Sequence record: PZ379598.1
DNA: 40,118 bases
Direction: 5' to 3' (one strand)
DNA from: a phage
Shown: one piece after another, positions 2,625-39,470 of the stretch
How the letters are laid out: every line of letters starts with the position of its first letter
Numbering within the stretch: the stretch's first letter is position 1
Notes under the pieces: generated by a model
Told to the model about the DNA's origin: nothing
Seen by the model: the letters and a program-made list of their open reading frames with translations, nothing else
The model's database searches: none
Translations under genes and position numbers: made by a program

Positions 2625-3054
2625 ATAGTCCCTCCAGCATTAGGTCCCGGACAGCGATAGACTCCTCTAAAGTGGGACGTGTTGTTCGCATATAGGCATT
2701 CCCGCGTTTAACCTGAATCCTATAACCATTCTGGTGACGGGTAACGCACTTCACTCCTGTCTTAGAGTCATAATGGCTACCAGTATTCCAAGTGTTTTCA
2801 GCGGCAGTAACGAGCCGTAAGTTACTTAAGGTATTATTGCTAGGGTTCCTGTAGATGTGGTCTATTTGCATACCATGCGGTATAGGACCATTGGTTAGTT
2901 CCCATATCACACGATGGGCCCGCTTACTGCCTAGACTTCGTGTCTGTACTATCCAATATCCCATCCGACTTAATGTTCCCACAGGCTTTCCAGTCCTAAC
3001 GGAGACCAGACCGGATGGACTAGCCGGGTCCACTTTGTAGTAATCACTTAACAC
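2617..3054 (-). CDS. HNH homing endonuclease
   Basis: 145 aa with an HNH core ([41 protein letters not shown]); overlaps the spanin 3' end and the terminase start. Confidence 0.8.
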
Positions 3055-3496
3055 CTTGGAGCCTCCTTATTGTGTCCTGAAGCGCCTTCTCCTTAAGGTC
3101 TGCCTCCTGAGTTAATCGGATAAGACTTTTAGAAGTTTCTGGGTGTAGTTCGACTCTACCATTAGGGAAGCATCTACTGACATCTGACTCGGTGAGACCT
3201 GAGGTGTTGACTCGGACGCGCAGCCGCTTGTTATCGCGGTTAAGGTCAGCAATAATCCTATCAGTAGAGCCTTCCAGCGCGGACATCTTGTCTTGCCACT
3301 CGGCTGACACTTTGTTGATTTCACCTTGGACAGCAGCCCGTTGATTCTCTCGTGCCTCAAGTTTCGTGATGTACTCATTGTTTACCTTCGCCTCCCACTT
3401 ATTGTCTGCCACCCAGTAGCCAGAACAGAACAGGAGTCCTGCAACCAGCCACGGGATTGCTTTACGTAAAAGTTCGAGCATAGTTGCCCTCCTCAT
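3044..3496 (-). CDS. gp18.5: i-spanin (Rz-like, T7 gp18.5-like)
   Basis: 150 aa; N-terminal membrane anchor then coiled-coil; matches recalled T7 gp18.5 (LRKLIPW..AG.LF, EGSTDRII.DL..DNKRLRVRV, LQDTIR.LQ). Confidence 0.9.
   Translation of the reverse strand: MRRATMLELLRKAIPWLVAGLLFCSGYWVADNKWEAKVNNEYITKLEARENQRAAVQGEINKVSAEWQDKMSALEGSTDRIIADLNRDNKRLRVRVNTSGLTESDVSRCFPNGRVELHPETSKSLIRLTQEADLKEKALQDTIRRLQGVK
3112..3378 (-). CDS. gp18.7: o-spanin (Rz1-like) embedded in the +1 frame of the i-spanin gene
   Basis: Embedded ORF with a hydrophobic stretch followed by a lipobox-like TSGC and a Pro/Ser-rich tail; embedded Rz1 architecture is typical for T7. The true start is probably downstream of the ORF-track start. 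Confidence 0.65.
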   Translation of the reverse strand: MSTSRNLRHERINGLLSKVKSTKCQPSGKTRCPRWKALLIGLLLTLTAITSGCASESTPQVSPSQMSVDASLMVESNYTQKLLKVLSD

Positions 3497-3540
3497 TTCT
3501 CAGAATCCACGTAGCGTCTCCGCCCGTAGTGTGTGTTAAC

Positions 3541-3580
3541 CATAAAGGCCACTACATATAGTAATGACCTTGAGTCTAAC
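3541..3580 (-). promoter_or_regulatory. Putative RNase III processing hairpin (R18.5 position)
   Basis: One of three copies of a conserved element (minus strand ...GACTCAAGGTCATTACTATATGTAGTGGCCTTTATG); resembles the recalled T7 R1.1 hairpin. It sits between small terminase and the spanin gene. Confidence 0.6.
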
Positions 3581-3582
3581 AC

Positions 3583-3846
3583 TTACTGTACACCATACCC
3601 GGTGTCGTTATCCTCAGTAGCTGAGAGCACCTTATCGTACTCCCTGTTCAAAGCCTCCATATCAGCGAGCGTCTTCTCGTCAACAGACACCTTGCTTAGC
3701 ACGAAGTTGTGACGAGCCAGTAGCTTCTCAATGGCGTTGTAAAGCTGAGGTGAACGCTTAGAGTCATCCCGCAGGTCTTGCAGCATGAGTCTAGCACGTT
3801 CAGTATCCAGCATCAAGAGGAACTTCTCTAAGTCCATCTGCGTCAT
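3583..3846 (-). CDS. gp18: Terminase small subunit (T7 gp18-like)
   Basis: 87 aa; matches recalled T7 gp18 (F..MLDT, RSPQLYNAI.KLL.RH.F). Confidence 0.85.
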   Translation of the reverse strand: MTQMDLEKFLLMLDTERARLMLQDLRDDSKRSPQLYNAIEKLLARHNFVLSKVSVDEKTLADMEALNREYDKVLSATEDNDTGYGVQ

Positions 3847-18020: not shown

Positions 18021-19339
18021 TTAGTTTGTGAAAGATACGTTGAAGGAACGCACAGGCGTACCGTCATACCCAACAATCACCAGACCTTCCACGCCAGAGG
18101 TGGCCTTGAAGTAGAGACTGTTGGTTCTACGGGAGTAGCTAACACCATCAGGCGTAGTCACCTCAAGCAGCGACCAATCGGTCACATCTGAAAGCTCAGG
18201 GAAGTCAACCTTCAGGCTGGTTCCCACCGTAGAACTATACGTCTCTAAGGTAGGACCCTCTGTAGAGAGGGCCTTAAAGGTCGTTAACCCGCTTTCGCCG
18301 CTGTGAAAACCAGTGCGCCTGCTGCTTCTGGACGCAGACCACCGTGACCCATAGCGTACTTACCAACAATCAGGTCGCCCTGAGCATCGACGTCACGGTC
18401 ACGTTCCAGCGCCAAGTCACGCAGCTTAACAGTACCTACAGCAGAACGGTGAGAGAACAGGCCCACAACGTTGTCCAGAGCAACTTTAACATCACCAGTA
18501 GCAGTAGCAGTAGCTGGGAAGGCGTGCTTCTGACCAGTCGCAATAGTGATACCATCGGCACCACGAGTTTCCCCAGCACCACCCTGAGTCAAGTGTGGAA
18601 CTTCAACAACCACGAAGCCCATTACGTTACGGATGTTACCAGTCTCTGGGTCAATCAGCGCAGCATAGTTAGCAGCGTTCGGCATCAGAGCCGCGAGGAT
18701 TGCAGAGTAGTTGTCCGGCGTGGTGTAGAAGTAACGGTCGCCAGCAGGAACGTAGTTGGATGTCAGCTTCGCACGAGCAATGGTCAGTTGACCGATGATT
18801 GCTTCACCCAGCTTAGCCGGAGTGTTCAGGTCTGCTTTAGTACCAACTTCCAGCACAGACGCTTTGCCAAGACCAGCGATGTTTTCATCAGATGCAGCCG
18901 GTAGGTTACACAGAATAGCCATCTCAGCCAGTACCGCACCATCGGCAGCGATAGCCAGAGCTTCGCCCAACTGGTTGGAGTACTCGCCAGCCACGTCATA
19001 GTGGTTCATCGCGTCTTCAATGTCGAAAATCATCACATCGGCAGTCAGCAGACCATCAATGGTAATCACTTTCTCGGTATGTTTGATACCTTTACGCTTA
19101 TCGGACAGTCGCTCACCCGGAGCCAGATACACACCAGAGGTGCGACCCATGACCGGGAACTGAGCAGACTTACCGTTCTGAATGGTACGGACAATATGCT
19201 TGTCAGCAGTTACAGAGCGGCGAGTGAATGCTGTCAGGACTTCGCCAGCAAAGACCTTCAGGAACAACGCCAGAGCGTCGGAACCAGATTTGCCTTTACC
19301 TTGGTCTGTACCAACTTTCTGACCCGGAACGTTTGCCAT
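18021..19339 (-). CDS. gp10B: Minor capsid protein 10B produced by -1 programmed frameshift
   Basis: The 10A frame contains G GTT TTC (plus strand 18305-18311) 8 codons before its stop, the same heptamer I recall for the T7 gene 10 shift site. The -1 frame is open from there to 18021, adding about 95 aa and joining the 68-aa track ORF 18021..18227. Confidence 0.7.
18284..19339 (-). CDS. gp10A: Major capsid protein (T7 gp10A-like)
   Basis: 351 aa; strong identity with recalled T7 gp10A (LALFLKVF.GEVLTAF, KSAQFPV.GRT, HTEKVITIDGLLTADV, NAANYAALIDPE.G.IRNVMGF, RSAVGTVKLRDLALER, KYAMGHGGLRPEAAGA). Confidence 0.95.
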   Translation of the reverse strand: MANVPGQKVGTDQGKGKSGSDALALFLKVFAGEVLTAFTRRSVTADKHIVRTIQNGKSAQFPVMGRTSGVYLAPGERLSDKRKGIKHTEKVITIDGLLTADVMIFDIEDAMNHYDVAGEYSNQLGEALAIAADGAVLAEMAILCNLPAASDENIAGLGKASVLEVGTKADLNTPAKLGEAIIGQLTIARAKLTSNYVPAGDRYFYTTPDNYSAILAALMPNAANYAALIDPETGNIRNVMGFVVVEVPHLTQGGAGETRGADGITIATGQKHAFPATATATGDVKVALDNVVGLFSHRSAVGTVKLRDLALERDRDVDAQGDLIVGKYAMGHGGLRPEAAGALVFTAAKAG

Positions 19340-22677: not shown

Positions 22678-22902
22678 TTACCCCATGTTTACGCCAGAGG
22701 CTCGCATAGCGCGGCTCACTGACGATTTATCTTTAGGTGCAGACTCCTTCTTAACCTTAAGGTCTTTGATACCTTTGGTCTCGTTTGTGTCCACATCCGA
22801 TTCAGCCCCGATGTCAACTGACGCAACTTCCTCACTCAGGGGTGCTGGTTCAGGTGCTTGGACAGAAGGCTTCGGAGTGCTAATCTTTGGACTGAAACAC
22901 AT
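22678..22902 (-). CDS. gp6.7: Virion protein (T7 gp6.7-like)
   Basis: 74 aa; N-terminal MCFSPKI and EPAPL as in recalled T7 gp6.7. Confidence 0.8.
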   Translation of the reverse strand: MCFSPKISTPKPSVQAPEPAPLSEEVASVDIGAESDVDTNETKGIKDLKVKKESAPKDKSSVSRAMRASGVNMG

Positions 22903-22916
22903 AGTCCCTCCTACAG

Positions 22917-23189
22917 TTAATCGAACTGAACGGTATCTTTCAGCTCACGACGCATAGCAACCGCAGAGTCGAGAGTGTCAGAGCAATACTGGAGACCCTT
23001 GATGAACCCGGCAATGAACGCATCGCTGTAGCCTTGCTGCTTGAGGAGACTGATAGCTCCCATCTTCTCAGCGTAGCTTGCGTTGAACAATACGTGCAGG
23101 AACTGGATGGCAGACTGGGAGATGTTAGGGACATCAAGTCTTTCTTCCTGTAACTGCTTAACAACGTTTTCAATAGCATTAATCGCCAT
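22917..23189 (-). CDS. gp6.5: T7 gp6.5-like protein
   Basis: 90 aa; the central motif QGYSDAFI.G.I.GL.Y resembles recalled T7 gp6.5; position matches. Confidence 0.65.
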   Translation of the reverse strand: MAINAIENVVKQLQEERLDVPNISQSAIQFLHVLFNASYAEKMGAISLLKQQGYSDAFIAGFIKGLQYCSDTLDSAVAMRRELKDTVQFD

Positions 23190-23252
23190 CTTGAATCTCC
23201 TTTAAGTTAAGACTAAAGTCTATCTTATAGTAATATCTTAGGTCCTAAAGTC

Positions 23253-23270
23253 CCTATAGTGATAGTTTAG
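23253..23270 (-). promoter_or_regulatory. Phage RNAP promoter (phi6.5 analogue), followed by a degenerate second copy at about 23225-23242
   Basis: Plus-strand CCTATAGTGATAGTTTAG; 30 bp further along the minus strand lies CTTATAGTAATATCTTAGG, matching 13 of 18 consensus positions. Confidence 0.8.
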
Positions 23271-24760: not shown

Positions 24761-25176
24761 TCCTTCTTAACAAGTTTGCGCTCACGGTTCGTCTTAATGA
24801 CGTGTTCGCGTTTTGTAATACACTGTAGATGCTCTATGTTGCAGCACCCACGGTTCAAGCACAAATGGTCTATTTCGTAGCCATTTGGTATAGGTCCGCG
24901 CTTCTGCTCCCACACCCATCGGTGGAACATGAAGGCGAACTTGTTGCCCTTCCTGTAGCTTCCCATGGAGTACCGGAAGTACCCATCTTGGTTCCTCTTG
25001 TGGGACACGCAGACGATACATCCGGTAGGCATGGTGTGGAAGCGTATGGTCTGGGTTCGAGGGTCAATGACACTCTTTCCACGTTGGTCCAATCTTACCC
25101 TCCGTATCAAGTTCACACTTGAAGTTATAGAAGCGTCCGACCTCGCGCATCGCCTCTTGAGCAATACGGACGACAT
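24751..25176 (-). CDS. HNH homing endonuclease overlapping the DNA polymerase 3' end
   Basis: 141 aa with an HNH core (CIVCVSHKRNQDGYFRY...FHRWVWEQKRGPIPNGYEIDHLCLNRGCCNIEHL); AGGAGA upstream of the ATG at 25176. The first ~113 nt overlap the polymerase C-terminal codons in another frame. Confidence 0.75.
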   Translation of the reverse strand: MSSVLLKRRCARSDASITSSVNLIRRVRLDQRGKSVIDPRTQTIRFHTMPTGCIVCVSHKRNQDGYFRYSMGSYRKGNKFAFMFHRWVWEQKRGPIPNGYEIDHLCLNRGCCNIEHLQCITKREHVIKTNRERKLVKKECH

Positions 25177-27235
25177 CTTCTGCTATCTCCTGAGTACGGC
25201 ACGCTATCTGCAATTCATCGTGAATCCAAGCCATTAGCGCAAAGTCGCCGTCCCATCCGTTACCGTAACCAGCCTCTTCAAGTTTCTTCTCAGTCAGTAC
25301 CATCCAGTGCTTACAGACAACCGCACCGTCCCCCTGAAGTAGGGCGTTAAGTGCTGAGTGTGGAGACCGGATGTGAATACGACGACCATCCAGACCTTTC
25401 AGCCAGCGACGTTTCCACTTGACGATATTCTCACCGTCCACCCACTTAGAGTCTGAGATTAACGTATTACTCACAGCTTCCCTGAGGTCCTTGATGGCTG
25501 GTGTACCCTCAATGAATTTCTTCATCAGAGCTGAACCTTCCTTCTTACCACCGCCTACTATCAGTCCAATCTTAGCGGCCCCTGCACCATACAGGAACGC
25601 GTAGATGAACGTCTTAGCGTTGTTACGGAAAGCCTCATGGTCGTGGTTAGACTTATCGCGTTGGACGTTAGGTGCTAACCCAGCGTTTACTGCGTTGGCC
25701 CAGTGGATGTCACCTTCTACCACAGTCTTCGCATATGCACCACCGTCAAACGGAGCCGCTCTGTTCCCAAGACAACGAAGCTCAAGACCTGAGGCATCCA
25801 CACCAACTTGAATCCAAGGGTCTGGCTTACCGTCCTTCTTGTTCCACGCTGCACCGAAAGCACCACGGCAAGTCTCACCATATGGAGCACCGTTAGCCGG
25901 GACCTGAGCCATGTTTGGTGAACTATGGGTCGCACGTCCGGTTACTGCCCCGCATGGGTTTATTGAGCCGTGCATACGTCCGTCTGGACCTACAAGTTTC
26001 AACCATGCGTTCTTACCTTCAGCAGCCTGACCGATGCGCTTCTGGACTACCAGGTACTCACGGACCAGCTCTACGCAAGCCTGAGCCTCTGCGTCTGGTA
26101 ACTTAACGTGTTCCAACGTCTCGTCATCGACTACAGGTTTCCCGGTGTCAGTGAAGTCCACAGGCTCCCAGCCACGCTCCATCAGAACTTTCGCTAAGTG
26201 GTCTCCGCTTCCCGGATTAAACTCAACGTAAGTGATAGGTGTGAACGGCGCTCCCTCCATCGTGTCTCGTGAGTCGAACTCGCAAGGCTCCAGACCTAAG
26301 CGTTGAGCTTTGTTCTTCGGCTTCTTGAATACTGACCCGACCTTCGGATACACGACTCGCGGATACTTCGGAAGGTCCTTGCCTGTCCGTGGGTGCTTGA
26401 AGAACTCCTTGCCTCCCTTTGGTGCGTACCAGCTGCCGAAAGTCGAACGCAGCTTGTCCAGCAGCTCTGCACGTTTGACGGTGAGTTCACGATATAAACC
26501 TTCGACCATCTCGGTGTTCATCGGATAGCCGTTACGCTCCATCTTCGCACAGGTCCACGCAGCATCATGTTCCAGACGCAACGCATAAATCTGGTCGAAA
26601 GCGAACTGTTCAGACTGGAAGTAATACTTGTCAGTCAGGAACTTCTTGAACAGCGCCAGCGTGACCACAACGTCTTGAACGTTATAGTCCAGCATCTCCT
26701 GAGACGGGAACATCCATTCGTCCCCAGCCTTATATTCGATACCTTCGGCCTTGCACTTGGCAACGTAATCGTGTTTGTACTCACCCTTCATCTCACCAAG
26801 ACGATAGCCCCAAGCCTCAAGAGACTGGCGTCCCATCATCTTAGGAGGCAGACGACCAGCTTTCACCGCGCCCATGTCTGAGAACTTAATGTTTGGATAC
26901 ATCAAGCGGCCTAGCACCAAGGTATCAATCATCTTGTGTTTCGGGAAGTTAAAACGTTTCCCAAAGTACAGACGCTTCAGCTTGTCTATAGCAGGGACGT
27001 CATAGTTGATACCGTTGTGAAATACCAGCATACCATCAGGCGATGCGGCAATCTCTTCAACTTTATGAACATACTCTTTGAAGCCACCGACGATACCGAC
27101 CATCGGAGCTACCCCATACTTAAGGGTCTCATTCGACTCGGCGTTAATCAGGACCCCACAGTGAAACTGGGAGACTGTATCAAGGAGACCGTTGGTCTCG
27201 ATGTCAGAACCCCAGATACTCTTAAGGTCAAACAT
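25064..27235 (-). CDS. gp5: DNA polymerase (T7 gp5-like, family A)
   Basis: Identity with recalled T7 gp5 (DIE.N.LL..V..FHCGV, FHNG..YDVPA, LEAWGYRLGEMKGEYK, DYNVQDVVVT, C-terminal LDTEGK.GP.W..CH). Start taken at internal ATG 27235 (GGAGGA 6 nt upstream); the track start at 27271 lies inside the upstream hairpin. Confidence 0.95.
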   Translation of the reverse strand: MFDLKSIWGSDIETNGLLDTVSQFHCGVLINAESNETLKYGVAPMVGIVGGFKEYVHKVEEIAASPDGMLVFHNGINYDVPAIDKLKRLYFGKRFNFPKHKMIDTLVLGRLMYPNIKFSDMGAVKAGRLPPKMMGRQSLEAWGYRLGEMKGEYKHDYVAKCKAEGIEYKAGDEWMFPSQEMLDYNVQDVVVTLALFKKFLTDKYYFQSEQFAFDQIYALRLEHDAAWTCAKMERNGYPMNTEMVEGLYRELTVKRAELLDKLRSTFGSWYAPKGGKEFFKHPRTGKDLPKYPRVVYPKVGSVFKKPKNKAQRLGLEPCEFDSRDTMEGAPFTPITYVEFNPGSGDHLAKVLMERGWEPVDFTDTGKPVVDDETLEHVKLPDAEAQACVELVREYLVVQKRIGQAAEGKNAWLKLVGPDGRMHGSINPCGAVTGRATHSSPNMAQVPANGAPYGETCRGAFGAAWNKKDGKPDPWIQVGVDASGLELRCLGNRAAPFDGGAYAKTVVEGDIHWANAVNAGLAPNVQRDKSNHDHEAFRNNAKTFIYAFLYGAGAAKIGLIVGGGKKEGSALMKKFIEGTPAIKDLREAVSNTLISDSKWVDGENIVKWKRRWLKGLDGRRIHIRSPHSALNALLQGDGAVVCKHWMVLTEKKLEEAGYGNGWDGDFALMAWIHDELQIACRTQEIAEDVVRIAQEAMREVGRFYNFKCELDTEGKIGPTWKECH

Positions 27236-27258
27236 GGTTAATCCTCCGTTTAGTCTAA

Positions 27259-27299
27259 TCATAAAGGCCACTCTATGTGAATGACCTTGAGTCTAGACC
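27259..27299 (-). promoter_or_regulatory. Putative RNase III processing hairpin (R4.7 position, before the DNA polymerase gene)
   Basis: Minus strand GACTCAAGGTCATTCACATAGAGTGGCCTTTATGATTAGAC: a 10-bp stem with G-U pairs, nearly identical to my recollection of the T7 R1.1 core (AAGGUCAUUCGCAAGAGUGGCCUUUAUGAUUGACC). Confidence 0.65.
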
Positions 27300-27499
27300 T
27301 AGAAGTCTGTACGCAAGAAGTGGTACATAAACTTCCGGTTAGCTTTCTTCCATGCCTTAGAGTCGAACCTCTGGTCTCCCAGAATGTTGGACAGGAAGGT
27401 TGCTTCATCGCTCCACCATTTGTACATGAACCGATGGTAGCGAGCTTTAAGTTTCTTAAACACTAATGGTGTCCTCCGTATGGTGACTTCCAATCGCAC
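27299..27499 (-). CDS. Hypothetical basic protein (56-66 aa), gene 4.x position
   Basis: ORF between primase-helicase and DNA polymerase; Lys/Arg/Trp-rich (KARYHRFMYKWW). Probable start is the internal GTG at about 27469 with GGAGGA 8 nt upstream. Confidence 0.5.
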   Translation of the reverse strand: MRLEVTIRRTPLVFKKLKARYHRFMYKWWSDEATFLSNILGDQRFDSKAWKKANRKFMYHFLRTDF

Positions 27500-27514
27500 T
27501 CAGGGCATTGACAT

Positions 27515-29218
<1,704 letters not shown>

Positions 29219-29268
29219 TCACTCCTTAATCACAAATGCGAACAGAGGGACAGGACTCACGGTCCCAT

Positions 29269-29288
29269 CCCTAAGGTGATAGTTTAGG
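29269..29288 (-). promoter_or_regulatory. Variant phage promoter upstream of the primase-helicase gene
   Basis: Plus-strand CCCTAAGGTGATAGTTTAGG (two mismatches to the consensus in the TATAG box), preceded by a GGGAC...GTCCC hairpin at about 29248-29267. Confidence 0.55.
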
Positions 29289-29499
29289 CTTTGAAGAACT
29301 GAGACAACTGGTCGGCTTTGGTGTCAGCCTGACGCGCCTTCATGCCAGCTTCCAGTGACGCGATGGTCAGCTTGTCAGCCAGAGCAGCAGCATCAGCCGC
29401 ACCATCGGCAGTCTTCTCTGCTACCTTTCGTTCCATAACCTCAGCACGACGATAACCACGCACCACCAGACGACCAAGAAATTCGATAAGTTTAATCAT
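29284..29499 (-). CDS. Hypothetical helical protein (71 aa)
   Basis: ORF between lysozyme and primase; Ala/Lys/Glu-rich with predicted amphipathic helices and C-terminal QLSQFFKA. Confidence 0.55.
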   Translation of the reverse strand: MIKLIEFLGRLVVRGYRRAEVMERKVAEKTADGAADAAALADKLTIASLEAGMKARQADTKADQLSQFFKA

Positions 29500-29522
29500 T
29501 GAGTGTTCTCCTTTAGAGTTTA

Positions 29523-29981
29523 TTAACCGTGGTCGGAAGTGACCAGTTCGTTAGTGTTAAGCCAGCGCTGCAAGTCGAAACTTGGGCAAGCCTTTGGTGC
29601 TACATCGTGGTGAGCCTTTATTTCTGCCTGAGGATACAAGTCCTTCAGGTCAGCCAGCTTGTTGCGCAGGGAGTTCATCTGGGCTGGAGTGAAGTTAGCT
29701 TCAAACTTGCCCTTAGCGTCAATTCCACCTACAAGGCAGACGCCTACAGACCGTGAGTTCCAGTCCTTAACGTGTGACCCTACGACATTGACAGGGCGTC
29801 CCTCTTCCACAGTACCATCGCGCTTGATGATAAAGTGGTAGCCTACGTCCAGCCAGCCTTGCTGCTTGTGCCACATACGGATGGTCTCTACCCCGATGTC
29901 CATCTCTGGCTTGGTAGCCGAACAGTGAACGAAGATAGCGTCGGTCCGGGACCGTGGATTGAACTGTACCTTACTTACCAT
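29523..29981 (-). CDS. gp3.5: Lysozyme / N-acetylmuramoyl-L-alanine amidase (T7 gp3.5-like)
   Basis: 152 aa; near-identical core to recalled T7 lysozyme (VQF..R..TDAIFVHCSATKP, QGWLDVGYHFIIKRDGTVE.GR, GVCLVGGID.KGKF.ANFTPAQM, HH.VAPKACPSFDL.RW, NELVTSD). Confidence 0.95.
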   Translation of the reverse strand: MVSKVQFNPRSRTDAIFVHCSATKPEMDIGVETIRMWHKQQGWLDVGYHFIIKRDGTVEEGRPVNVVGSHVKDWNSRSVGVCLVGGIDAKGKFEANFTPAQMNSLRNKLADLKDLYPQAEIKAHHDVAPKACPSFDLQRWLNTNELVTSDHG

Positions 29982-30465
29982 TGTACACCACCAATTCTAC
30001 GACAACCAGATTCAGGTGCTGGGTGAAGCGTTGTGCGTCCGTGGTGTGCATCTGGAGATGCTTATGGTTGAAGACGTGTGAGTTGCTAATCTTCACGTAA
30101 ACTTCTTCAGGCTTTCCATGGACGATGAACGTCTGGCCTACACCAATCTTGTCGATGGTCAGGACTTCACGCTTCAAAGTCACAGGCGGTACGCTCGAAG
30201 CTGGCAGGACTTGAGTGGTTTGGACACCAGTGAGTTTCTCTTCCGGCTTGATTTCCTCAAGTTTCCAATTAAGGACCCATGCTCCCCACATACCATCAGG
30301 CTGAGTATTGCATCCGTTAGACCCATGTTTGTATGCGCCTGGAGTCTGGCACTCAACTAGGGTCATTCTTGAATCTGGTACGGGGTCATTCTCACACTTG
30401 GTAACTATAGTCCCACTAGGCCAGCCATGCGCATCTACTAACAGTTTAAACTTCTTGCTCATCAC
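29971..30465 (-). CDS. Hypothetical protein (164 aa) inserted between endonuclease I and lysozyme
   Basis: ORF with an ATGA start overlap on the gp3 stop and an 11-nt overlap with the lysozyme start; no motif I can assign; T7 has no gene at this junction. Confidence 0.65.
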   Translation of the reverse strand: MMSKKFKLLVDAHGWPSGTIVTKCENDPVPDSRMTLVECQTPGAYKHGSNGCNTQPDGMWGAWVLNWKLEEIKPEEKLTGVQTTQVLPASSVPPVTLKREVLTIDKIGVGQTFIVHGKPEEVYVKISNSHVFNHKHLQMHTTDAQRFTQHLNLVVVELVVYNGK

Positions 30466-30914
30466 TTAACTCCTTTCTTCTTGGGGATGAGTATACCTGA
30501 AGGAAGACGTACAGTCGCCTCTCGAAGCCACTCAACCGGGATGAATTTATCGGCATACTTATAGCCGTTCTTTTCGCACCATGCGCCATACGTGGTTGGA
30601 GACCCTTTGTATAACTTGGAGCGTGAACTTGAGAACACGAACCGGATGTCTAACTCTGGGTGCTGTTCTCGTACCAGAAGGTGCTTCTTACGGTCATCAC
30701 TATCGAAGATACCTTTGGTCTCCACGATGATACCGTTAGGAAGGATAAAATCTGGTGTGTACTTGTGGTCGGAAGCCGGAATCACATAGTTGATATAATG
30801 GCTTTCGTACTCCGCTTTGACGCCGTTCTGTTCCAGCCACTGCTGGTTCTTGGCTTCAAGTCCAGAGCGGTAGGCACCCACAGAGTGCCCCCGTTTTGCA
30901 GACCATTGGGCCAT
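30462..30914 (-). CDS. gp3: Endonuclease I, Holliday junction resolvase (T7 gp3-like)
   Basis: 150 aa; strong identity with recalled T7 gp3 (VGA.RSGLE, YVIPAS.H.YTPDF.LPNGI.VETKG, SDDRKKHLL.REQHPELDIR.VFSSSR.KLYKGSPT.YG). Confidence 0.95.
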   Translation of the reverse strand: MAQWSAKRGHSVGAYRSGLEAKNQQWLEQNGVKAEYESHYINYVIPASDHKYTPDFILPNGIIVETKGIFDSDDRKKHLLVREQHPELDIRFVFSSSRSKLYKGSPTTYGAWCEKNGYKYADKFIPVEWLREATVRLPSGILIPKKKGVK

Positions 30915-31612
30915 TAGAAGTCGTAATCGCCACCAGAGCTGGAGTCGTCACCACCTTCGGAACCATCATCACCGAAGTCATCAGACCCGAAGTCACCATC
31001 GGTTGACGCTTTGTACCCAGTACCGAGGTCTTCATCGTCACCCCAGCCACCATCACCACCAGCACCATCACCTTTCCACTCCTTCAGTTCTACCAGAAGG
31101 CATGACTCAAGCTGGAGCTTAACGCTTGCACCAGTCGCAGCGTTCCACTTGAACGGCAGTACTTTGAACTTGACCTTCAGTTTGGAGCCAGCGCCAATAT
31201 TCGGGACGTCACGGATTAACTTAGCATCAGTGTCGTAGAACCGTAATACGATAGGCTCTGACTTGCCGTCTTTCAGGTAAGACGCAAAGCATTTAAACTT
31301 AAGGGTAACAGTACCGTCACCATTCTCAATCCACGGCATGTCGCCTTCTCGTGGTTCAATAGGCTTCTTGCCACGCTGAACCTGAGGTGGGTTCTTCTCG
31401 TGGTCTGCGAGTGCTTTTGCATACGCATCGTCGTGAATCTTCTGTAAGACATCAATCATCTTACGGACATTATGGTTGCTCAGGTCGAATGTCAGGTTAA
31501 CCTTATGCTCACCACGCTCGTTAAACTTGGTGTCTGCTTTGTTCAGCCATGCGTAAGGCTCAACGATACCAGCTACCGGAGTGGTGAAAGTCTTCAGTTG
31601 CTTTTTAGTCAT
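30914..31612 (-). CDS. gp2.5: Single-stranded DNA-binding protein (T7 gp2.5-like)
   Basis: 232 aa; matches recalled T7 gp2.5 (NPP...RGKKP..P.EGDMP, NGDGT.T.KFKC.AS, GSKLKVK, KWN...GASVKLQLES, acidic C-terminal tail ending in F). Confidence 0.95.
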   Translation of the reverse strand: MTKKQLKTFTTPVAGIVEPYAWLNKADTKFNERGEHKVNLTFDLSNHNVRKMIDVLQKIHDDAYAKALADHEKNPPQVQRGKKPIEPREGDMPWIENGDGTVTLKFKCFASYLKDGKSEPIVLRFYDTDAKLIRDVPNIGAGSKLKVKFKVLPFKWNAATGASVKLQLESCLLVELKEWKGDGAGGDGGWGDDEDLGTGYKASTDGDFGSDDFGDDGSEGGDDSSSGGDYDF

Positions 31613-31654
31613 CGGTGTAAATCTCCTAATTTAAAGTTACTAACTGGACGTCTG

Positions 31655-31673
31655 TCCTACAGTGATAGTTTAG
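31655..31673 (-). promoter_or_regulatory. Phage RNAP promoter (variant, upstream of the SSB gene)
   Basis: Plus-strand CCTACAGTGATAGTTTAGG (one mismatch in the TATAG box); overlaps the gp2 stop codon. Confidence 0.65.
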
Positions 31674-31828
31674 GTCTCAGGACGAATCCGTCCGACCATA
31701 AACCCAGCGTCCTCATACTCTTGGGACTTCAGGGTAGCCTCTTCAAGAGACTTTGCGTACACCGGAACCTCGAAGGACTGGGTACGTCCCTCAAGTTCCA
31801 CGATGTATTTCTTCTCTACGTCAGTCAT
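31670..31828 (-). CDS. gp2: Host RNA polymerase inhibitor (T7 gp2-like)
   Basis: Hand-translated 52-aa [55 protein letters not shown], resembling recalled T7 gp2 (SFEVP.YA..L.EA......Y..AGF.V.R.RP); AAGGAG 8 nt upstream. Coordinates +/-2 nt. Confidence 0.65.
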
Positions 31829-31906
31829 AGACCACGCTCCTTCCATAAGTTGTAGAGCTGAAGGTAATCGACGTTACCTGTCTCCTCAAATTTACGCTCG
31901 CACCAC

Positions 31907-32350
31907 TCACTCGGAAGCATAGCACTTACCTTTATGTAGGTAGAACAGCTCCTGATAGAAGGCTGCTTTGTTCAGGTCCTTCTCCATAGTCGCCAGCTCT
32001 GACTTCTTACCAGCCCGGAGTCGATACTTAAGGACGTTACCCATGCAGAAGCCACGGAACTCACTGACAGTCATGGACCGAGCGATAATCTCAATGGACT
32101 CCACGCCGTCAAAGACCTGATAGTGAGATGGCTTACGGACGCTATCTTCCTGACCTATGGTTGTCGGCTCGGACTGCGCCTGCTTGGTAATACTTAAGGA
32201 ACTAATGGAGTGAGTGAGTGGTTCAGATAAACGGGGCCACTTAACAACAGCTACATGCTCATTCTTAACCACTATCACCTTGCCACAGGAGCGTCCCGCG
32301 TGCGCTCCAACTGGTCCAACATAGTTAACTGTATCCCCCACCTTAACCAT
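31907..32350 (-). CDS. gp1.7: Nucleotide kinase (T7 gp1.7-like)
   Basis: 147 aa; C-terminal region matches recalled T7 gp1.7 (KPSHY..FD..E.IE.IARSMTV..F.G.C.GN.LKYRLRAGKKSELA..EKDL.KA.FY.ELF..HK.KCYA). Confidence 0.85.
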   Translation of the reverse strand: MVKVGDTVNYVGPVGAHAGRSCGKVIVVKNEHVAVVKWPRLSEPLTHSISSLSITKQAQSEPTTIGQEDSVRKPSHYQVFDGVESIEIIARSMTVSEFRGFCMGNVLKYRLRAGKKSELATMEKDLNKAAFYQELFYLHKGKCYASE

Positions 32351-32603
32351 TGATCACCTCCTTCACGAACTCAATAAACAGACGAACGCGAGGCCACTTG
32401 GTGTATACCACAGGTACGTCGGTCTCACGCTTCTGGCGAGCCTCTTCAGCTTTGCCGTGAGTAATCAGAGCATAGACTGTAGGTGACAGCTTAACGGCCT
32501 TCCCGAAGTATCCCAGCTTCTCGTTGCGCTTAATGCAAGCGAACGGGTTGTTAGACAGGTGGAAGGTATCGGTATAACGGTTGAACATTAAGTTCTTAGA
32601 CAT
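32343..32603 (-). CDS. Hypothetical protein, gene 1.6-position
   Basis: 86-aa ORF immediately downstream of a phage promoter; positional analogue of T7 gene 1.6, similarity not verified. Confidence 0.6.
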   Translation of the reverse strand: MSKNLMFNRYTDTFHLSNNPFACIKRNEKLGYFGKAVKLSPTVYALITHGKAEEARQKRETDVPVVYTKWPRVRLFIEFVKEVING

Positions 32604-32631
32604 AGAGTCTCCTTTTGTTGTTGATGGTTGT

Positions 32632-32651
32632 CCTATAGTGATAGCTTAGGG
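32632..32651 (-). promoter_or_regulatory. Phage RNAP promoter (first promoter after the early terminator)
   Basis: Plus-strand CCTATAGTGATAGCTTAGGG. Confidence 0.8.
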
Positions 32652-32679
32652 TCTAACTGGTGGCCCAGACGATAGCTTG

Positions 32680-32726
32680 CTAGCACAAAGCAAAGAAACC
32701 CAGCAGTCCGCGAAGACCACTGGGTT
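32680..32726 (-). terminator. Early (TE-like) intrinsic terminator after the ligase gene
   Basis: Minus strand CCCAGTGGTC-TTCG-CGGACTGCTGGG followed by TTTCTTTGCTTTG: GC-rich stem, UUCG tetraloop, U-rich tail, directly after the ligase stop as T7 TE follows gene 1.3. Confidence 0.75.
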
Positions 32727-32735
32727 GACATTTAG

Positions 32736-33782
32736 TTAGCTCTTAACGGTTGGATTGTCTTCCGTTCCACGCCAGCACTTGAAGCTAGGGTGACGAAGAG
32801 AGCCATCAGGGAACCGCTCCATGAATAGCACTTCACACTGCCAGCCTTCGTATGGATTGATTCCACCGAGAATATATGTATCAGTGTTACAGGCTTCCGT
32901 AAACTCAGCCTTCTGTTCTTCAGTCAGACCACAGGCGTTAACCACCATGCCATCCTCAAGCAGAACCTCGAAGCCGATGACCTTGCCCTCGTTAGCCTTA
33001 CCCTGAGTCCCCCACACGAGACCACACACGGTCCCGTCGATGGTCTCCTCAGGCTTCATCTTCCACATGCCTGACTTCTTGCCACGCTTATATTTACCCA
33101 GTGGGTCCTTGACTACCAGACCCTCGTGTCCTTCCAGACGCTTCTGTTCGTACAGGGAGTTGAGCGACTCAAGGTCATAGACCGTGTGTGACTCAGACAG
33201 AGCCCAGTCGATTTCCGGGAAGTATTTCTGGAGGAGAGGGACGATAGCTTCGGCCTTCAGGCGTGTGACGCTATGGATAGGACCTTCGGCTTTCGGGTCA
33301 GCAATGGTTGTCATGTCGATGACACCGTAGACCACAACCTGAAGTCGTGACCGGGATCCCCAGAACGGGAGCTTCTTTCCACCAGTCGCCGGCGAATAGT
33401 ATTCAGCGAACTCCTCGTTGTTAGGCTTGAGCCACTTCGTTCGGATGAGACCTGAGGAGGTGTTGAAGTCTACACCTTTGACCATGACCTCGCCATCAAT
33501 CATCATGCCCACACCTTCGTAGCCGGATTGACGCAGGAACCATCGCCAGTCAGCTTGGGTCCACGCATTACCTAACTCAGAGTTCATCCACTCCAAGGCT
33601 GGTAGAGGTTTCGACTCGCGGCTAAGCCAGTAGGTCTCACCTTCACGCAGGACCAGGAGGTTCAGGCGCACACCATCGTACTTCACTTCAGCTTCCAGAG
33701 ACCCGGCTGCTTCCAGTGCCTTCTTAATGCCAGACTCAGAGTAATCTACAGCGCGGTGAGGGTTGGTCTTGATAGTTGTCAT
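32736..33782 (-). CDS. gp1.3: ATP-dependent DNA ligase (T7 gp1.3-like)
   Basis: 348 aa; IKTNP..AV, the active-site lysine motif E.KYDGVR, EGHEGL.VKDP, YKRGKKSG.WKMKP, EGKVIGFEVLLE and C-terminal DGSLRHPSF...RGTEDNP as in recalled T7 ligase. Confidence 0.95.
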   Translation of the reverse strand: MTTIKTNPHRAVDYSESGIKKALEAAGSLEAEVKYDGVRLNLLVLREGETYWLSRESKPLPALEWMNSELGNAWTQADWRWFLRQSGYEGVGMMIDGEVMVKGVDFNTSSGLIRTKWLKPNNEEFAEYYSPATGGKKLPFWGSRSRLQVVVYGVIDMTTIADPKAEGPIHSVTRLKAEAIVPLLQKYFPEIDWALSESHTVYDLESLNSLYEQKRLEGHEGLVVKDPLGKYKRGKKSGMWKMKPEETIDGTVCGLVWGTQGKANEGKVIGFEVLLEDGMVVNACGLTEEQKAEFTEACNTDTYILGGINPYEGWQCEVLFMERFPDGSLRHPSFKCWRGTEDNPTVKS

Positions 33783-34033
33783 TATTTCCAGCTCCTATAA
33801 GCGTTAAGTTGCTGCAAGCACCATTGCTCACAGTTAAAGATTTCGTGTTCGGTAAACTCGCGGGAGACCAGAAGCCTTCCACCGTCTGCTTCAATGATTC
33901 TGACCAATACCATGCGGGAGTACGGCGAGTCATCCATTAGGACCTCAAGTCCTGCCTCGCTCATCCAGCGGTGGGTCCGCCCTAACGATGACCACTGGCT
34001 CGGGGATGCGTCGAATAACCAACGTTTACTCAT
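33782..34033 (-). CDS. gp1.2: T7 gp1.2-like protein (in T7, inhibitor of host dGTPase)
   Basis: 83 aa; C-terminal half resembles recalled T7 gp1.2 (RI.E..G.L...........E..FN.C..WL....Y..W). Confidence 0.7.
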   Translation of the reverse strand: MSKRWLFDASPSQWSSLGRTHRWMSEAGLEVLMDDSPYSRMVLVRIIEADGGRLLVSREFTEHEIFNCEQWCLQQLNAYRSWK

Positions 34034-34036
34034 GGC

Positions 34037-34216
34037 TTACACTCCTACGAAATACTTCTCTTGGTTAACCAGAGAGTCTTTACCTTCAGCGTTTCGGAAA
34101 GCGCCTTTGATACCACCACCACGCTTGGTCTTGTTCAGTTTGCGGCCCTTCGGGATGTAACCTTCAGTCTGCTGACGTTCACGGATGCGCTCGAAGTTGA
34201 TAGTGTTCTGATACAT
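34037..34216 (-). CDS. gp1.1: T7 gp1.1-like small basic protein (59 aa)
   Basis: Hand-translated ORF MYQNTINFERIRERQQTEGYIPKGRKLNKTKRGGGIKGAF... containing KGRKLNKTKR, identical to the motif in recalled T7 gp1.1; just below the 60-aa track cutoff. Confidence 0.7.
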   Translation of the reverse strand: MYQNTINFERIRERQQTEGYIPKGRKLNKTKRGGGIKGAFRNAEGKDSLVNQEKYFVGV

Positions 34217-34249
34217 ACGGTTAAATCTCCAGTAGTGTTTATTTAGGGT

Positions 34250-34293
34250 TAATCATGAAGGCCACGACTTTGAGTCATGACCTTGAGTCTAAT
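34250..34293 (-). promoter_or_regulatory. Putative RNase III processing hairpin (R1.1 position)
   Basis: Minus strand GACTCAAGGTCATGACTCAAAGTCGTGGCCTTCATGATT; third copy of the conserved element, in the leader between the phi1.1-like promoter and gene 1.1. Confidence 0.6.
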
Positions 34294-34313
34294 CCTATAG
34301 TGATAGTTTAGGG
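34294..34313 (-). promoter_or_regulatory. Phage RNAP promoter (phi1.1 analogue)
   Basis: Plus-strand CCTATAGTGATAGTTTAGGG. Confidence 0.8.
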
Positions 34314-34333
34314 TTAACCTCTTCTGCGTTGGA

Positions 34334-34603
34334 TTAAAGTGAATACTGCGAGTGCTCCCAGCCACATGGCCAGTAACTGTATGTCTGTCGTTTGGCCTGC
34401 TCCAGCTTGGACACTGCGTCCTTCAGGTACTTCTCGTGGCTGGACTCGACCAGATATACAAGAGTCTTGAACGGGATGTTAAGCTGCTTGGACATCTCGG
34501 TAGGGATGACCGTGGTCTTCACCAGACCCTTGCCGTTGTGTTCTGTTACGGTCACGATTTGAGTCCCACCATTAACGCCAGTATGCTTGTGTGCAAATTT
34601 CAT
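34334..34603 (-). CDS. Hypothetical protein (89 aa)
   Basis: ORF with AAGGAGAG 4 nt upstream of the ATG; lies between RNAP and the phi1.1 promoter, where T7 has no gene. Confidence 0.65.
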   Translation of the reverse strand: MKFAHKHTGVNGGTQIVTVTEHNGKGLVKTTVIPTEMSKQLNIPFKTLVYLVESSHEKYLKDAVSKLEQAKRQTYSYWPCGWEHSQYSL

Positions 34604-34613
34604 AACTCTCTCC

Positions 34614-34844
34614 TTATCTAATTAGAGGGAATGACGGATACTGAATGCGCTCGTCTTCCATCCACGCGTTAAGAACTTCATCAATCGAAGCTATAAGGTT
34701 GTACTCGTTAGGTTGAATCCACCCAGTCACACCCGACTGTAATCTGTCTCTGAGAATGATTAAATCCTTATAAGTCAGCTCTACATGGCAACGTCCCGAC
34801 CCATCGTTGAATACCCTGTTGTGTGCTACAAGTTTCATTGACAT
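34614..34844 (-). CDS. Hypothetical protein (76 aa)
   Basis: ORF with AGGAGGAG upstream, 15 nt after the RNAP stop; no recognisable motif. Confidence 0.65.
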   Translation of the reverse strand: MSMKLVAHNRVFNDGSGRCHVELTYKDLIILRDRLQSGVTGWIQPNEYNLIASIDEVLNAWMEDERIQYPSFPLIR

Positions 34845-34859
34845 ATACTCCTCCTGTTG

Positions 34860-37541
34860 TTAAGCGAATGCAAAGTCTGAAGACAAGATGTCTTCGATAT
34901 TCAGTTTACCTTTCTTCGGAAGCTCAGGCAACTTGTCTCTCTGGCTCTCGTGAAGCTGGTATTCAAACTGCTCGTAGAAGTCAAGCAGCACATCGTTGTC
35001 GCGGTATGTCTCGACCATCGTCTCACGGACTCCACGGAACAGATACTCAGCGTCAGCCGGGATGGTCCCGAAGCTATCGTGAATCACTGCGAATGACATC
35101 ACGCCATATTTGCGGTGCGTGTGGACTACAGTCTTGCGGAGGTGGCTACCATCTTGTGAGTGGACGAAGTTCGGGCTAATGCCTGACTCCTGCTTGTGCT
35201 TGTCCAGCTCTTTCTTCGTGCCTTTGTTGACGGTAGGCTGAAGGTTGAATGACCCTAAGAACATCAGGTTCAGACGAGTGGTGTCCTTCTTGCGGTATTC
35301 CTGCCAGACAGGGAAACCATCAGGTGTGACCCAGTGTACCGGAAGACAAGGCTTCAGGATTTCTCCAGTCTTCTTGTCCTTCACTTCAGCAGCAAGCAGC
35401 TTGGCAGCACCCTGAAGCCATTTCATCGCGTCAACCGCAGCAACTACGGTCACACTCACAGCTTCCCAAATCATCTTAGCCATGAAGCGAGATGCTTGGC
35501 TTGGTTCAGTGAACATAGCGCCAGACCCTGAGTCAATCGCTGGCATCACGATGTCCTCGTAAACTTGGTCTGCGAAGCCGTACTCTTTCGACCCGTAGGC
35601 CAGAGTCATGACCGAACGCTTAGTGACCTTTCGTGACATACCGTAGGTCAGCCACTGACGGGCAAGCTCTCGTGTCCCCAGCTTGAGACGCTCGGTAATC
35701 TCACCAGTTTTCTTGTCCTCGTGAGTTACCATCTCGTTGTCCGTACCGTTAACCAGTAGGACTTTAAGCTCCTCCTCAATGCGGTCAGACACGATGCGGT
35801 AGATGTCTTGGACCTTACCGGATGGCGTCAGGTTTACTGCATGTCCACCGATGTGGTCGCGAAGCATAGCGCTGAAGTGCTGAATCCCAGAGCAGGACCC
35901 ATCGAACGCTATCGGCAGCGAGCAGGAGTAAGACAAGCCGTGGTGCATTACGCCAGCATACTCGAAGCAGAACGCTAGGAAGCAGAACGGAGAGTCTAAC
36001 TTGCCCCACCACTCAATGCTATCCATCGGTGCCTTGGCAGCAGCCATGATGTTGTCGTGGTTATCTTCCACCCACTTGATACGCTCCTCGAAGGTGACTT
36101 TATCGACACCCGCGCAGTTTGCACCGTGGACCTTCAGCCATTTGAAACCATCAGCACCAATAGGCTTACCGACTGCCAGAGTCAGAAGACCCTTTTGCAT
36201 GTCGTTACCCTGAGGGTTGAACATCGGCACAGCGTAGACGCGACCGCGCCAGTCCATGTTATACGGGAACCAGATGGCCTTGAACTGAGAGAACTTGTTC
36301 GCTTGGTTGACGATAAAGCTCAGTGACAATCTTCGTGACTGTCTGGCCTTCTCGCGGCGATAGATACCAGCAGCAGCCTTCTTCCATGCCTTGAGTTCTT
36401 CTTCAGTCTCACCCGCATAGTCCTCAGGCTTCAGCGGTTCCATCTGAGGGATGTCATCAATAGGCGTGTTGTTCAGCTTCTCGACCATGTTCACCACTTC
36501 CAGAACCTTCTTGTTCACTTTCCAAGGTGTATTCTGAATGATGTTCACAGCGTCATAGACTTCAGGCATATACACGTCTTCGTAGCGTGCTACCGCAGAC
36601 TTAGACCCTAAGCGAATCAGTGGTAATGGTCTGCGTCCTTTGGCCCAGTACCCACCGCCTACGACACCAGTCCACGGCTTAGGTGGAACGACGCAAGGCT
36701 GGTAGACTGGAGCTATACCCGCAAGGCTGAATCCTCGTTGTGCCATCTTCTTGACCCAGAAGTCTGACAGGTGGACCATCTCAACGTCAGCCGCTGCATT
36801 GCCAGCACCGTAACGCTTAAGCTCGACCAGTTGTGTGGACTGGATGACAATCTCCAGCATCTTGATTCCAACGTGGACAGCCTCGGTCGGACTCCAAGTC
36901 CCCCACGCATCTTCCAGTTGGCCTTGCTCCAGCATGGATGCCTCGACCGCTTGCATGTAGGCTTTCTTGTAGGACGCCCCGGCCCGCTTATTCAGGTTAT
37001 CAGCTATCGCCTTCTTGAAGTGCTCTTTCTCCTTGTCACGGATGCGACCGAAGCGGATTTCGTCCTCAAGTGTGCGACCTATCGCTGAGGCCATCGGTGT
37101 AATCGGTATCCCTTCAGGCTTGACCAGCTTGGAGAGTATGACCTTCAGTATGATAACCGCAGCAGACTCGCAGGAGATGCGCAAAGAGCGGACCTTTACG
37201 GCCTTCTCTTCAGTGCTCAACATGGTGAACGCTACGCTCGGACGAGAGGTTGACAGCTTCCCGTCTGGACCTTCATGCCACTCCTTGACGGCTTGCGCAA
37301 TCTTAGGGACCAGAGTCTGCATCAAAGGCTTGGCGACCTGATTGTCTGCCAGTTCCCCTCGCTCAGTCTGTCTCTCAAGGTTCTTGATGAAACGTCGCTC
37401 GCCTTCAGTGTATGCCTCGTGCTCAAGCTGAAGCTGTTTGACTGCAAGGTCTTGCCCGTAGTGGTCAGCCAGTAGGTTAAACGGCTCAATGGCGTTCGAC
37501 ACATCAGAGAAGTCGTGCTTGTCAATAGAGATGACGCTCAT
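34860..37541 (-). CDS. gp1: Single-subunit DNA-directed RNA polymerase (T7 gp1-like)
   Basis: 893 aa; colinear with recalled T7 RNAP from the N-terminus (DFSD...PFN.LADHYG, LEHE.Y..GE.RF) through the C-terminal FAFA. Confidence 0.97.
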   Translation of the reverse strand: MSVISIDKHDFSDVSNAIEPFNLLADHYGQDLAVKQLQLEHEAYTEGERRFIKNLERQTERGELADNQVAKPLMQTLVPKIAQAVKEWHEGPDGKLSTSRPSVAFTMLSTEEKAVKVRSLRISCESAAVIILKVILSKLVKPEGIPITPMASAIGRTLEDEIRFGRIRDKEKEHFKKAIADNLNKRAGASYKKAYMQAVEASMLEQGQLEDAWGTWSPTEAVHVGIKMLEIVIQSTQLVELKRYGAGNAAADVEMVHLSDFWVKKMAQRGFSLAGIAPVYQPCVVPPKPWTGVVGGGYWAKGRRPLPLIRLGSKSAVARYEDVYMPEVYDAVNIIQNTPWKVNKKVLEVVNMVEKLNNTPIDDIPQMEPLKPEDYAGETEEELKAWKKAAAGIYRREKARQSRRLSLSFIVNQANKFSQFKAIWFPYNMDWRGRVYAVPMFNPQGNDMQKGLLTLAVGKPIGADGFKWLKVHGANCAGVDKVTFEERIKWVEDNHDNIMAAAKAPMDSIEWWGKLDSPFCFLAFCFEYAGVMHHGLSYSCSLPIAFDGSCSGIQHFSAMLRDHIGGHAVNLTPSGKVQDIYRIVSDRIEEELKVLLVNGTDNEMVTHEDKKTGEITERLKLGTRELARQWLTYGMSRKVTKRSVMTLAYGSKEYGFADQVYEDIVMPAIDSGSGAMFTEPSQASRFMAKMIWEAVSVTVVAAVDAMKWLQGAAKLLAAEVKDKKTGEILKPCLPVHWVTPDGFPVWQEYRKKDTTRLNLMFLGSFNLQPTVNKGTKKELDKHKQESGISPNFVHSQDGSHLRKTVVHTHRKYGVMSFAVIHDSFGTIPADAEYLFRGVRETMVETYRDNDVLLDFYEQFEYQLHESQRDKLPELPKKGKLNIEDILSSDFAFA

Positions 37542-37633: not shown

Positions 37634-37638
37634 CAGAA

Positions 37639-38269: not shown

Positions 38270-38401
38270 AGTTAACTCCTATCAATGTAAGTGGTAATCT
38301 TTGAGGCCACCTATCAGTCGATGACCTCTCGTCTATCACTCAGTACCATCACGTCAGTGTTATGGTCAAGCTATGATTTGGTTCTCTCCTGTTTATTTAG
38401 G

Positions 38402-38629: not shown

Positions 38630-38841
38630 ATCTTCCCTCTCAGTTGTTAATGACTATCAGTCAGGCCACCAGCATTGATGACCTGTAGTCTGTCACTTAG
38701 CGTGTAAACTGTCGTGTATACGCTTGCGTCTCCTGTAGACCACTTTCAAGAGACGCATAGCCCAATCGTGGTCTAACTGCCCGGTCTTGACCATAAGCCG
38801 GGCGTTAGTGACGTGGTGCTGGCAGAGGCCATAAGTTACCA

Positions 38842-39345: not shown

Positions 39346-39379
39346 AGTTATATCCTCTCAAAGTTAATTATGTGTTAAT

Positions 39380-39470
39380 GACTATCAGTCAGGGCCTTCA
39401 GATGTAGACTCAAAGGCCCTGTAGTTAGTCGCTATCGGCGCACATTAAGAGTTTATCCAGATTGTTAAAG
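39380..39470 (-). promoter_or_regulatory. R0.3-like RNase III processing region in the early leader
   Basis: Minus strand contains CTCTTTAACAATCTGGATAAACTCTT, closely matching the recalled T7 leader CTCTTTAACAATCTGGTAAATAGCTCTT, followed by a perfect 9-bp hairpin CAGGGCCTT...AAGGCCCTG. Confidence 0.6.

Follow-up and report, generated by a model that had tools for sequence, protein, structure and literature searches.

Coding-strand hairpins of a Kayfunavirus genome as very probable orthologues of the RNase III signals R1.1, R4.7 and R18.5 of phages T7 and T3

Three intergenic RNA hairpins encoded by a T7-group phage genome are very probably orthologous to the R1.1, R4.7 and R18.5 elements of T7 and T3, that is to RNase III signals for mRNA processing, and are accompanied in the same genome by three weaker early copies. 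The material analysed was a stretch of 40,118 nucleotides (record PZ379598.1; hereafter 'the window', meaning the whole of that stretch), half of which was compared with phage records by megablast and matched Escherichia phages of the genus Kayfunavirus at 93-97% identity, with more than 90% of the query covered. Kayfunavirus holds the K1F-like phages of the Studiervirinae (Autographiviridae), within the T7 group. Since every long open reading frame (ORF) lies on the - strand, the window is taken to be the reverse complement of a complete T7-group genome. Its gene order is the same as in the annotated relatives MZ234021 and K1F, and its relatives are phages infecting E. coli. An earlier note on this DNA, prepared from the sequence alone, had spoken of T7 sites: the elements are indeed homologues of the T7 R1.1 type, but the genome that carries them is that of a Kayfunavirus rather than T7.

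A hairpin family on the coding strand

All three main elements (3530-3584, 27249-27301 and 34243-34297) are present on the coding (-) strand (Table 1). The pattern ACTCAAGGTCAT-N(8-20)-GTGGCCTT has exactly three matches in the window, each on that strand (3545-3575, 27264-27292 and 34258-34288), as compared with none in 100 shuffles and a chance expectation of zero. These positions agree with the three spans given in the earlier note (3541-3580, 27259-27299 and 34250-34293). The flanking sequences described there were likewise recovered, ACTCAAGG and TT(T/C)ATG(A/G)TT being seen in the three elements, as was a core containing G-U pairs, the U.G wobbles falling within GGUCAU/GUGGCC. On alignment the copies have in common TAGACTCAAGGTCAT and GTGGCCTT(T/C)ATG(A/G)TTA, the invariant blocks being TAGACTCAAGGTCAT (15 nt) and GTGGCCTT plus ATG. 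The term 'near-identical', by which the copies had been described, is apt for these two blocks but not for the whole element, since pairwise identity over the spans of the earlier note is 72-84%; the distal stem, the apical loop and the lower stem all vary among the three copies, with compensatory changes. The length of 40 bp at first attributed to the elements also needs revision, the functional unit being longer, at around 53-55 nt with the lower stem included.

Table 1. Positions of the hairpins and of neighbouring features in the window.
Feature	Position	Strand	Evidence
R4.7-type hairpin	27249..27301	-	62.8 bits, E 7.6e-15 (model R1); fold -20.4 kcal/mol, z -3.1, 4/5 internal loop
Gene 5 (DNA polymerase)	25064..27235	-	PHROG DNA polymerase, E 3e-164
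R18.5-type hairpin	3530..3584	-	60.4 bits (model R1); fold -25.3 kcal/mol, z -3.8
Gene 18.5 (Rz-like spanin)	3044..3496	-	PHROG Rz-like spanin, E 2.8e-54
Gene 18 (small terminase)	3583..3846	-	PHROG terminase small subunit, E 1.1e-34
R1.1-type hairpin	34243..34297	-	57.9 bits (model R1); fold -20.2 kcal/mol, z -5.0
59-aa ORF at gene 1.1 position	34037..34216	-	phrog_4383, E 2e-41
Gene 1.2 (dGTPase inhibitor)	33782-34033	-	phrog_6515 dGTPase inhibitor, E 2.4e-36
Phage RNA polymerase promoter GTTAACCCTAAACTATCACTATAGG	34294..34318	-	reads straight into the R1.1-type hairpin
Early-region member, R0.5/R1-like variant ACUACAGG...CCUGACUGA	38647..38698	-	42.7 bits, E 4e-9; fold z -2.75
Early-region member	38288..38341	-	34.7 bits, E 8e-7; fold z -2.84
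R0.3-type member	39375..39434	-	29.2 bits, E 3e-5; fold -23.2 kcal/mol, z -4.1

Folding of the RNA together with its flanks, which had been proposed as a check, predicted the internal-loop duplex in all three copies. Each consists of an upper stem of 10-12 bp, an asymmetric internal loop and a lower stem of 6-7 bp, the loop presenting 4 nt (ACUC) on its 5' side and 5 nt (U[A/C]UG[A/G]) on its 3' side. These folds, which are the minimum-energy or centroid structures, have energies of -20 to -25 kcal/mol and z values of -3.1 to -5.0, and T7 R1.1, folded alongside them, yields the same architecture. Beside the internal loop, the 7 base pairs AAGGUCA/UGGCCUU are the same as in T7 R1.1; the distal pairs, near the apical loop, differ.

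Covariation was assessed quantitatively in two sets of sequences. Among 10 paralogues, 95.6% of cells were paired over the 16 pairs, compared with 30-49% in slid controls, and changes on both sides were found in nine of these pairs, six of them in the seven-pair lower stem. For the larger set, a pattern scan of IMG/VR gave at least 120 stretches, almost all of them from contigs around 40 kb long, and 132 model matches in 80 of the resulting loci provided 107 distinct sequences. Compensatory changes were present here in 15 of the 16 pairs. The covariation values of both sets (10 and 107 sequences) were reached by none of 500 shuffles, and slid controls paired 27-50% of cells against 96%. Because the 107-sequence alignment was fitted to the covariance model, and its loci were picked via the conserved pattern, its figures for loop conservation are upper bounds.

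The covariance model, R1, was trained on the three copies of the window and seven from T7, the T7 regions having been picked for alignment by coordinates that we take to be those of Dunn and Studier (1983). With filters off, it hit the window six times, always in an intergenic spacer and on the coding (-) strand, so that a family first counted as three has at least six members in this genome. The three main elements score 58-63 bits; the three early-region members, which were absent from the training set, fold into the same architecture. The hairpin at 38647-38698 lies between two small early ORFs; that at 38288-38341, whose K1F orthologue is at 1767-1820, lies upstream of a small early ORF (ATG around 38269); and that at 39375-39434 precedes the start of ocr (gene 0.3) at 39345, where T3 annotates R0.3 at the equivalent place.

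The feature tables of the T7 records NC_001604 and V01146 contain promoters, terminators and CDSs only, and no RNase III sites. The T3 record AJ318471, with ten stem-loops annotated as 'RNase III recognition site', was employed as an independent reference. Model R1 found eight of the ten (R0.3, R0.5, R1, R1.1, R1.3, R4.7, R6.5 and R18.5), with coordinates within 1-7 nt, a recovery that validates it on unseen data; the structurally different R3.8 and R13 were missed, and T3 gave no further hits below E 0.1. In T7 itself, the pattern AAGGTC-N-GTGGCCTT occurs at four places (1441, 5861, 6421 and 13867), the copy at 5861, R1.1, reading ACTCAAGGTCATTCGCAAGAGTGGCCTTTATGATT. The consensus tAGACTCAAGGTC...GTGGCCTTTATGATTA is common to the window copies and to T7 R0.3, R0.5, R1, R1.1, R1.3, R4.7 and R18.5. 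The homology to T7 R1.1 that had been put forward in the earlier note is therefore upheld by the common consensus, the same fold, the scores of 58-63 bits and the recovery of eight of the ten T3 sites.

The positions assigned to the elements, before genes 18.5, 5 and 1.1, were confirmed by the PHROG gene context, and T3 annotates R18.5, R4.7 and R1.1 at these same places: its R18.5 overlaps the gene 18 stop, its R4.7 is directly before gene 5, and its R1.1 is right after promoter phi1.1. In the window, the R4.7-type hairpin starts at the last base of the stop codon (27301-27299) of an upstream ORF of 54-66 aa and ends 13 nt before the ATG (27235) of gene 5, which is the gene served by this site; its orthologues are at 12854-12906 in K1F and at 12970-13019 in T3, where R4.7 is annotated. 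The R18.5-type hairpin begins within the stop codon of gene 18 (3585-3583), with gene 18.5 (ATG 3496) downstream, and is 73% identical to T7 R18.5, compared with 38-56% for the flanks. In the R1.1-type hairpin, which differs by one base from K1F 5567-5621, the lower stem has the +1 GG of the phage promoter as its first bases; the 59-aa ORF (ATG 34216) and then gene 1.2 follow downstream. The promoter core, CTATCACTATAGG, has 9 exact occurrences in the window, every one on the - strand.

Directly after the R1.1-type hairpin, at 34229-34253 (-), there is also a degenerate second promoter copy, ATTAACCCTAAATAAACACTACTGG, which agrees with the promoter at 34294-34318 at 20 out of 25 positions; it also overlaps the lower stem, on the 3' strand. 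The resulting layout of promoter, hairpin and degenerate promoter (34229-34318) recalls that of phi1.1A, R1.1 and phi1.1B in T7.

The same sites are carried by K1F and MZ234021. More widely, an R18.5-type site follows gene 18 in all 23 Kayfunavirus contigs retrieved through gp18, lying 1-12 nt (mostly 2) past the stop in 22 of them and some 480 nt downstream in the other (L020). In 12 distant gp18 relatives (51-56% identity) no element was found near gene 18, even by a model search with filters off, and the family is thus not universal among T7-like phages.

Similarity between the copies

Conservation between the copies had been regarded in the earlier note as unusual for elements of this kind and as suggestive of recent duplication. 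The first point is answered by T7, whose own seven sites named above have the same consensus. As to the second, the copies would be recent duplicates of a repeated or mobile sequence, or would have been homogenised by gene conversion, their similarity reflecting recency rather than function. We give this a very small probability, even though it would accommodate the long invariant blocks (15 nt + 8 nt) between copies in one genome, and even though the apical part of the window's R4.7-type copy is closer to T7 R1.1 than to T7 R4.7, so that not every segment reveals the orthology. K1F, T3 and T7 have sites at the same three positions although the flanking genes are 38-56% identical to T7; identity between the copies is only 72-84%, at positions that are fixed across genera; and the lower stems of the copies differ by compensatory changes in six of seven pairs. 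No target-site duplications or terminal repeats were seen. Moreover, the R18.5 copies of the window, K1F, T7 and T3 all have UAUGG where almost every other site has UAUGA, and since an R18.5-specific UAUGG would not survive recent duplication or homogenisation, recent duplication is rejected. Cross-genus synteny, taken with this marker, leads to the conclusion that the similarity between the copies is maintained by selection, as is known for the T7 family.

The object of that selection may be considered further. Reportedly, to judge from its title, a 1991 paper by Chelladurai concerned a 'conserved sequence element' dispensable for accurate cleavage in vitro, and the conservation seen here in the loop and in the AAGG/CCUU box exceeds that reported need. 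The invariant parts persist from Kayfunavirus to T7, T3 and a distant low-GC T7-like contig, in which loop and box are kept even though the upper stems are different. Such observations would suit a ligand that recognises sequence, be it an RNA-binding protein of phage or host or RNase III itself in a non-cleaving role; in addition to cleavage or instead of it, this ligand would account for the invariance of the ACUC/UAUGA loop and the AAGG/CCUU box and for the fixed U.G wobbles. The suggestion is also compatible with the ability of RNase III to bind without cleaving (PMC3867540) and with the failure of substrate alignments to reveal a positive sequence determinant (PMC1540722). We nevertheless consider it highly improbable. 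RNase III cuts T7 R1.1, whose loop and box are the same, both in vivo and in vitro (PMC6121014), the identity of the proximal box has an influence on binding as well as on cleavage (PMC1540722), and the accepted role of the loop is the limiting of cleavage to one strand (PMC1540722; PMC3867540); furthermore, a candidate for such a binding protein is neither known nor indicated by the genes present. It is also very unlikely that the invariant loop, box and U.G wobbles encode a second sequence-specific function beyond what accurate cleavage needs. Candidates for such a function might be another recognition factor, or a tuning of product release or of mRNA 3'-end stability, and, if true, it would account for a much greater likeness among the phage sites than among cellular RNase III substrates.

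As stable hairpins in intergenic positions of the transcribed strand, with a short U-rich CCUUUAU after the upper stem, the elements could in principle also be transcription terminators or pause sites for the host or phage RNA polymerase, a reading to which we attach next to no weight. A terminator scan of 27000-35000 returned six candidates, from which 27249-27301 and 34243-34297 are both absent, although the same scan called a TE-like terminator at 32726-32697 (-). The stems contain U.G pairs and are not followed by the run of T typical of an intrinsic terminator; for 3530-3584, which lies outside the scanned interval, the absence of a run of T after the stem was established by inspection of the sequence. 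In addition, 34243-34297 starts at the +1 of a promoter, where termination would be senseless, and the essential genes 5, 18.5 and 19 lie directly downstream of their hairpins with no promoter between.

The element at 32697-32726 (-) is a 13-bp G+C-rich hairpin with a T-run, situated right after the ligase gene, and is the counterpart of the early terminator TE of T7 and T3.

Predicted processing by RNase III

The model substrate to which these hairpins are related, R1.1, is a 60-nt RNA with an asymmetric 4/5-nt internal loop, derived from between T7 genes 1.0 and 1.1, and contains a primary RNase III site used both in vivo and in vitro (PMC6121014). In RNase III substrates, proximal and distal boxes have roles, the identity of the proximal box affecting binding and cleavage (PMC1540722), and internal loops restrict the enzyme to one phosphodiester, leaving protective 3' hairpins (PMC1540722; PMC3867540). 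By homology with these systems we infer, for the window phage, RNase III binding, cleavage, the position of the cut and consequences for stability and translation. Long polycistronic transcripts of the - strand would be made by host or phage RNA polymerase, and in them each element would fold co-transcriptionally into a helix of about 20 bp interrupted by the asymmetric ACUC / U[A/C]UG[A/G] loop; RNase III, the host's double-strand-specific endonuclease, would then bind the helix, with the loop restricting the cut to one strand. In T7, we take the cuts to be at 5887, 1468 and 36856, following Dunn and Studier (1983), and in our alignments all of them come after UUUAU. The homologous cut would fall after UUUAU in the window as well, inside the 3' side of the loop, giving predicted cuts (- strand) at 27261/27260, 3542/3541 and 34255/34254.

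On this scheme, the hairpin would stay on the 3' end of the upstream message, whether that of gene 18, of the small ORF before gene 5 or of a promoter-proximal leader, and would shield it from 3'-5' exonucleases; the gene 18 mRNA, for example, would end in the R18.5 hairpin after cleavage. The downstream RNA would acquire a defined 5' end, predicted to lie 25 nt before the ATG for gene 5, 45 nt for gene 18.5 and 38 nt for genes 1.1/1.2. T7, which has ten RNase III sites, grows on RNase III-deficient hosts (PMC6938266), indicating that the sites are not essential and that their effect is modulatory, so that their selective value is only partly explained.

The AUG of the 3' internal loop in the R4.7-type hairpin (27262-27260, -) and a GTG at 27271 are both in frame with gene 5, and a mechanical ORF call accordingly stretches gene 5 into the hairpin at 27249-27301. 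The in-frame AUG is most likely coincidental, since the predicted RNase III cut falls inside it.

Annotation status and comparison with known systems

Elements of this known kind are unannotated in the public records of Kayfunavirus. No RNase III site is listed in the K1F RefSeq record or in that of the closest relative (MZ234021), and a literature search for RNase III sites in K1F-like phages yielded reviews only. Rfam gave no matches in the whole window at gathering thresholds, a permissive scan of 27150-27400 giving noise only (E above 3), and it appears to contain no model for T7-group RNase III signals. The main value of the present results is thus one of annotation. Model R1 finds T7-group sites cleanly, and is usable for marking transcript-processing boundaries, for removing spurious small ORFs and for choosing insulating elements for phage engineering. 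Biologically nothing unexpected emerges: the K1F lineage retains, with fewer sites, the T7 scheme in which RNase III hairpins punctuate polycistronic mRNAs.

The CDSs of MZ234021 at 6148-6237, 15646-15762 and 22866-23267 include two small ones, each a 'hypothetical protein', that overlap the R18.5-type and R1.1-type hairpins and are probably spurious, as well as an extra gene of 133 aa.

Model R1 found no equivalent of R1, R1.3 or R6.5 in the whole window. At 37590-37627 (-), just upstream of the RNA polymerase gene, a consensus phage promoter is followed by the 5' half-motif ACTCAAGGTC. This half-site was tried as a family member and rejected, there being no model hit, no 3' partner and a fold z of -0.35. 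K1F has the same promoter and half-motif before its RNA polymerase gene, and in T7 and T3 the place is taken by a true R1 site and a host promoter; the half-motif may be a relic of R1. The R6.5 hairpins of T7 (18502-18575) and T3 (17135-17207) have the whole phi6.5 promoter inside the apical loop, and after the equivalent promoter of the window, at 23253-23265, the model gave no R6.5-type hit. Around 29235-29282 (-), the promoter CTATCACCTTAGG has directly after it a strong 5' stem-loop, GGGAUGGGACC...GUCCUGUCCC, and the motif CCCUCUGUUCGCAUU, which is found also in T7 and, less exactly, in T3. This hairpin corresponds to the R3.8 annotated in T3; its structural class is a different one, which model R1 misses.

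The early region (37541-39400, -) contains no ORF comparable in size to the gene 0.7 protein kinase of T7 and T3, its largest ORF being ocr, at 167 aa, and the kinase is also absent from the K1F annotation. In T7 this kinase phosphorylates and stimulates RNase III (PMC3867540).

A far denser arrangement than that of T7 is seen in the low-GC T7-like metagenomic contig IMGVR_UViG_3300032274_000058, where at least eight copies of the hairpin family are found within 2.4 kb (456-2417, -), one between nearly every tiny ORF. These copies keep the ACUC/UAUGA loop and an AGUAAUA/UAUUAUU lower stem, and their upper stems differ.

Compared with its T7 namesake, the R1.1-type element has the same core, ACUCAAGGUCAU...GUGGCCUUUAUGAUU, and the same 4/5-nt asymmetric internal loop between upper and lower stems, and in both genomes it follows a phage promoter in the interval between gene 1 and genes 1.1/1.2. 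The differences lie in the apical stem and loop (GACUCAAAGUC in the window, UCGCAAGA in T7), in the 3' loop (UCAUGA as against UUAUGA), in the sequence of the lower stem, with one A/C mismatch, and in the setting, the window phage being a Kayfunavirus with an extra pair of ORFs between gene 1 and the site. The other two main elements share with R4.7 and R18.5 of T3 and T7 their intergenic positions, consensus and fold, including the UAUGG variant in the case of R18.5, whereas the lower stems and apical loops have diverged via compensatory changes.

Around the R4.7-type site the gene content varies. T7 has gene 4.7 in the space from R4.7 to gene 5, and in MZ234021, the closest relative, the extra 133-aa gene occupies the interval between the site and gene 5; the window lacks the latter gene, which suggests that the site borders an indel-prone spot. 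As in the ten-site sets of T7 and T3, related coding-strand hairpins punctuate both early and late polycistronic transcripts, but in the window the family has six members, and the counterpart of R3.8 is a hairpin of a different class.
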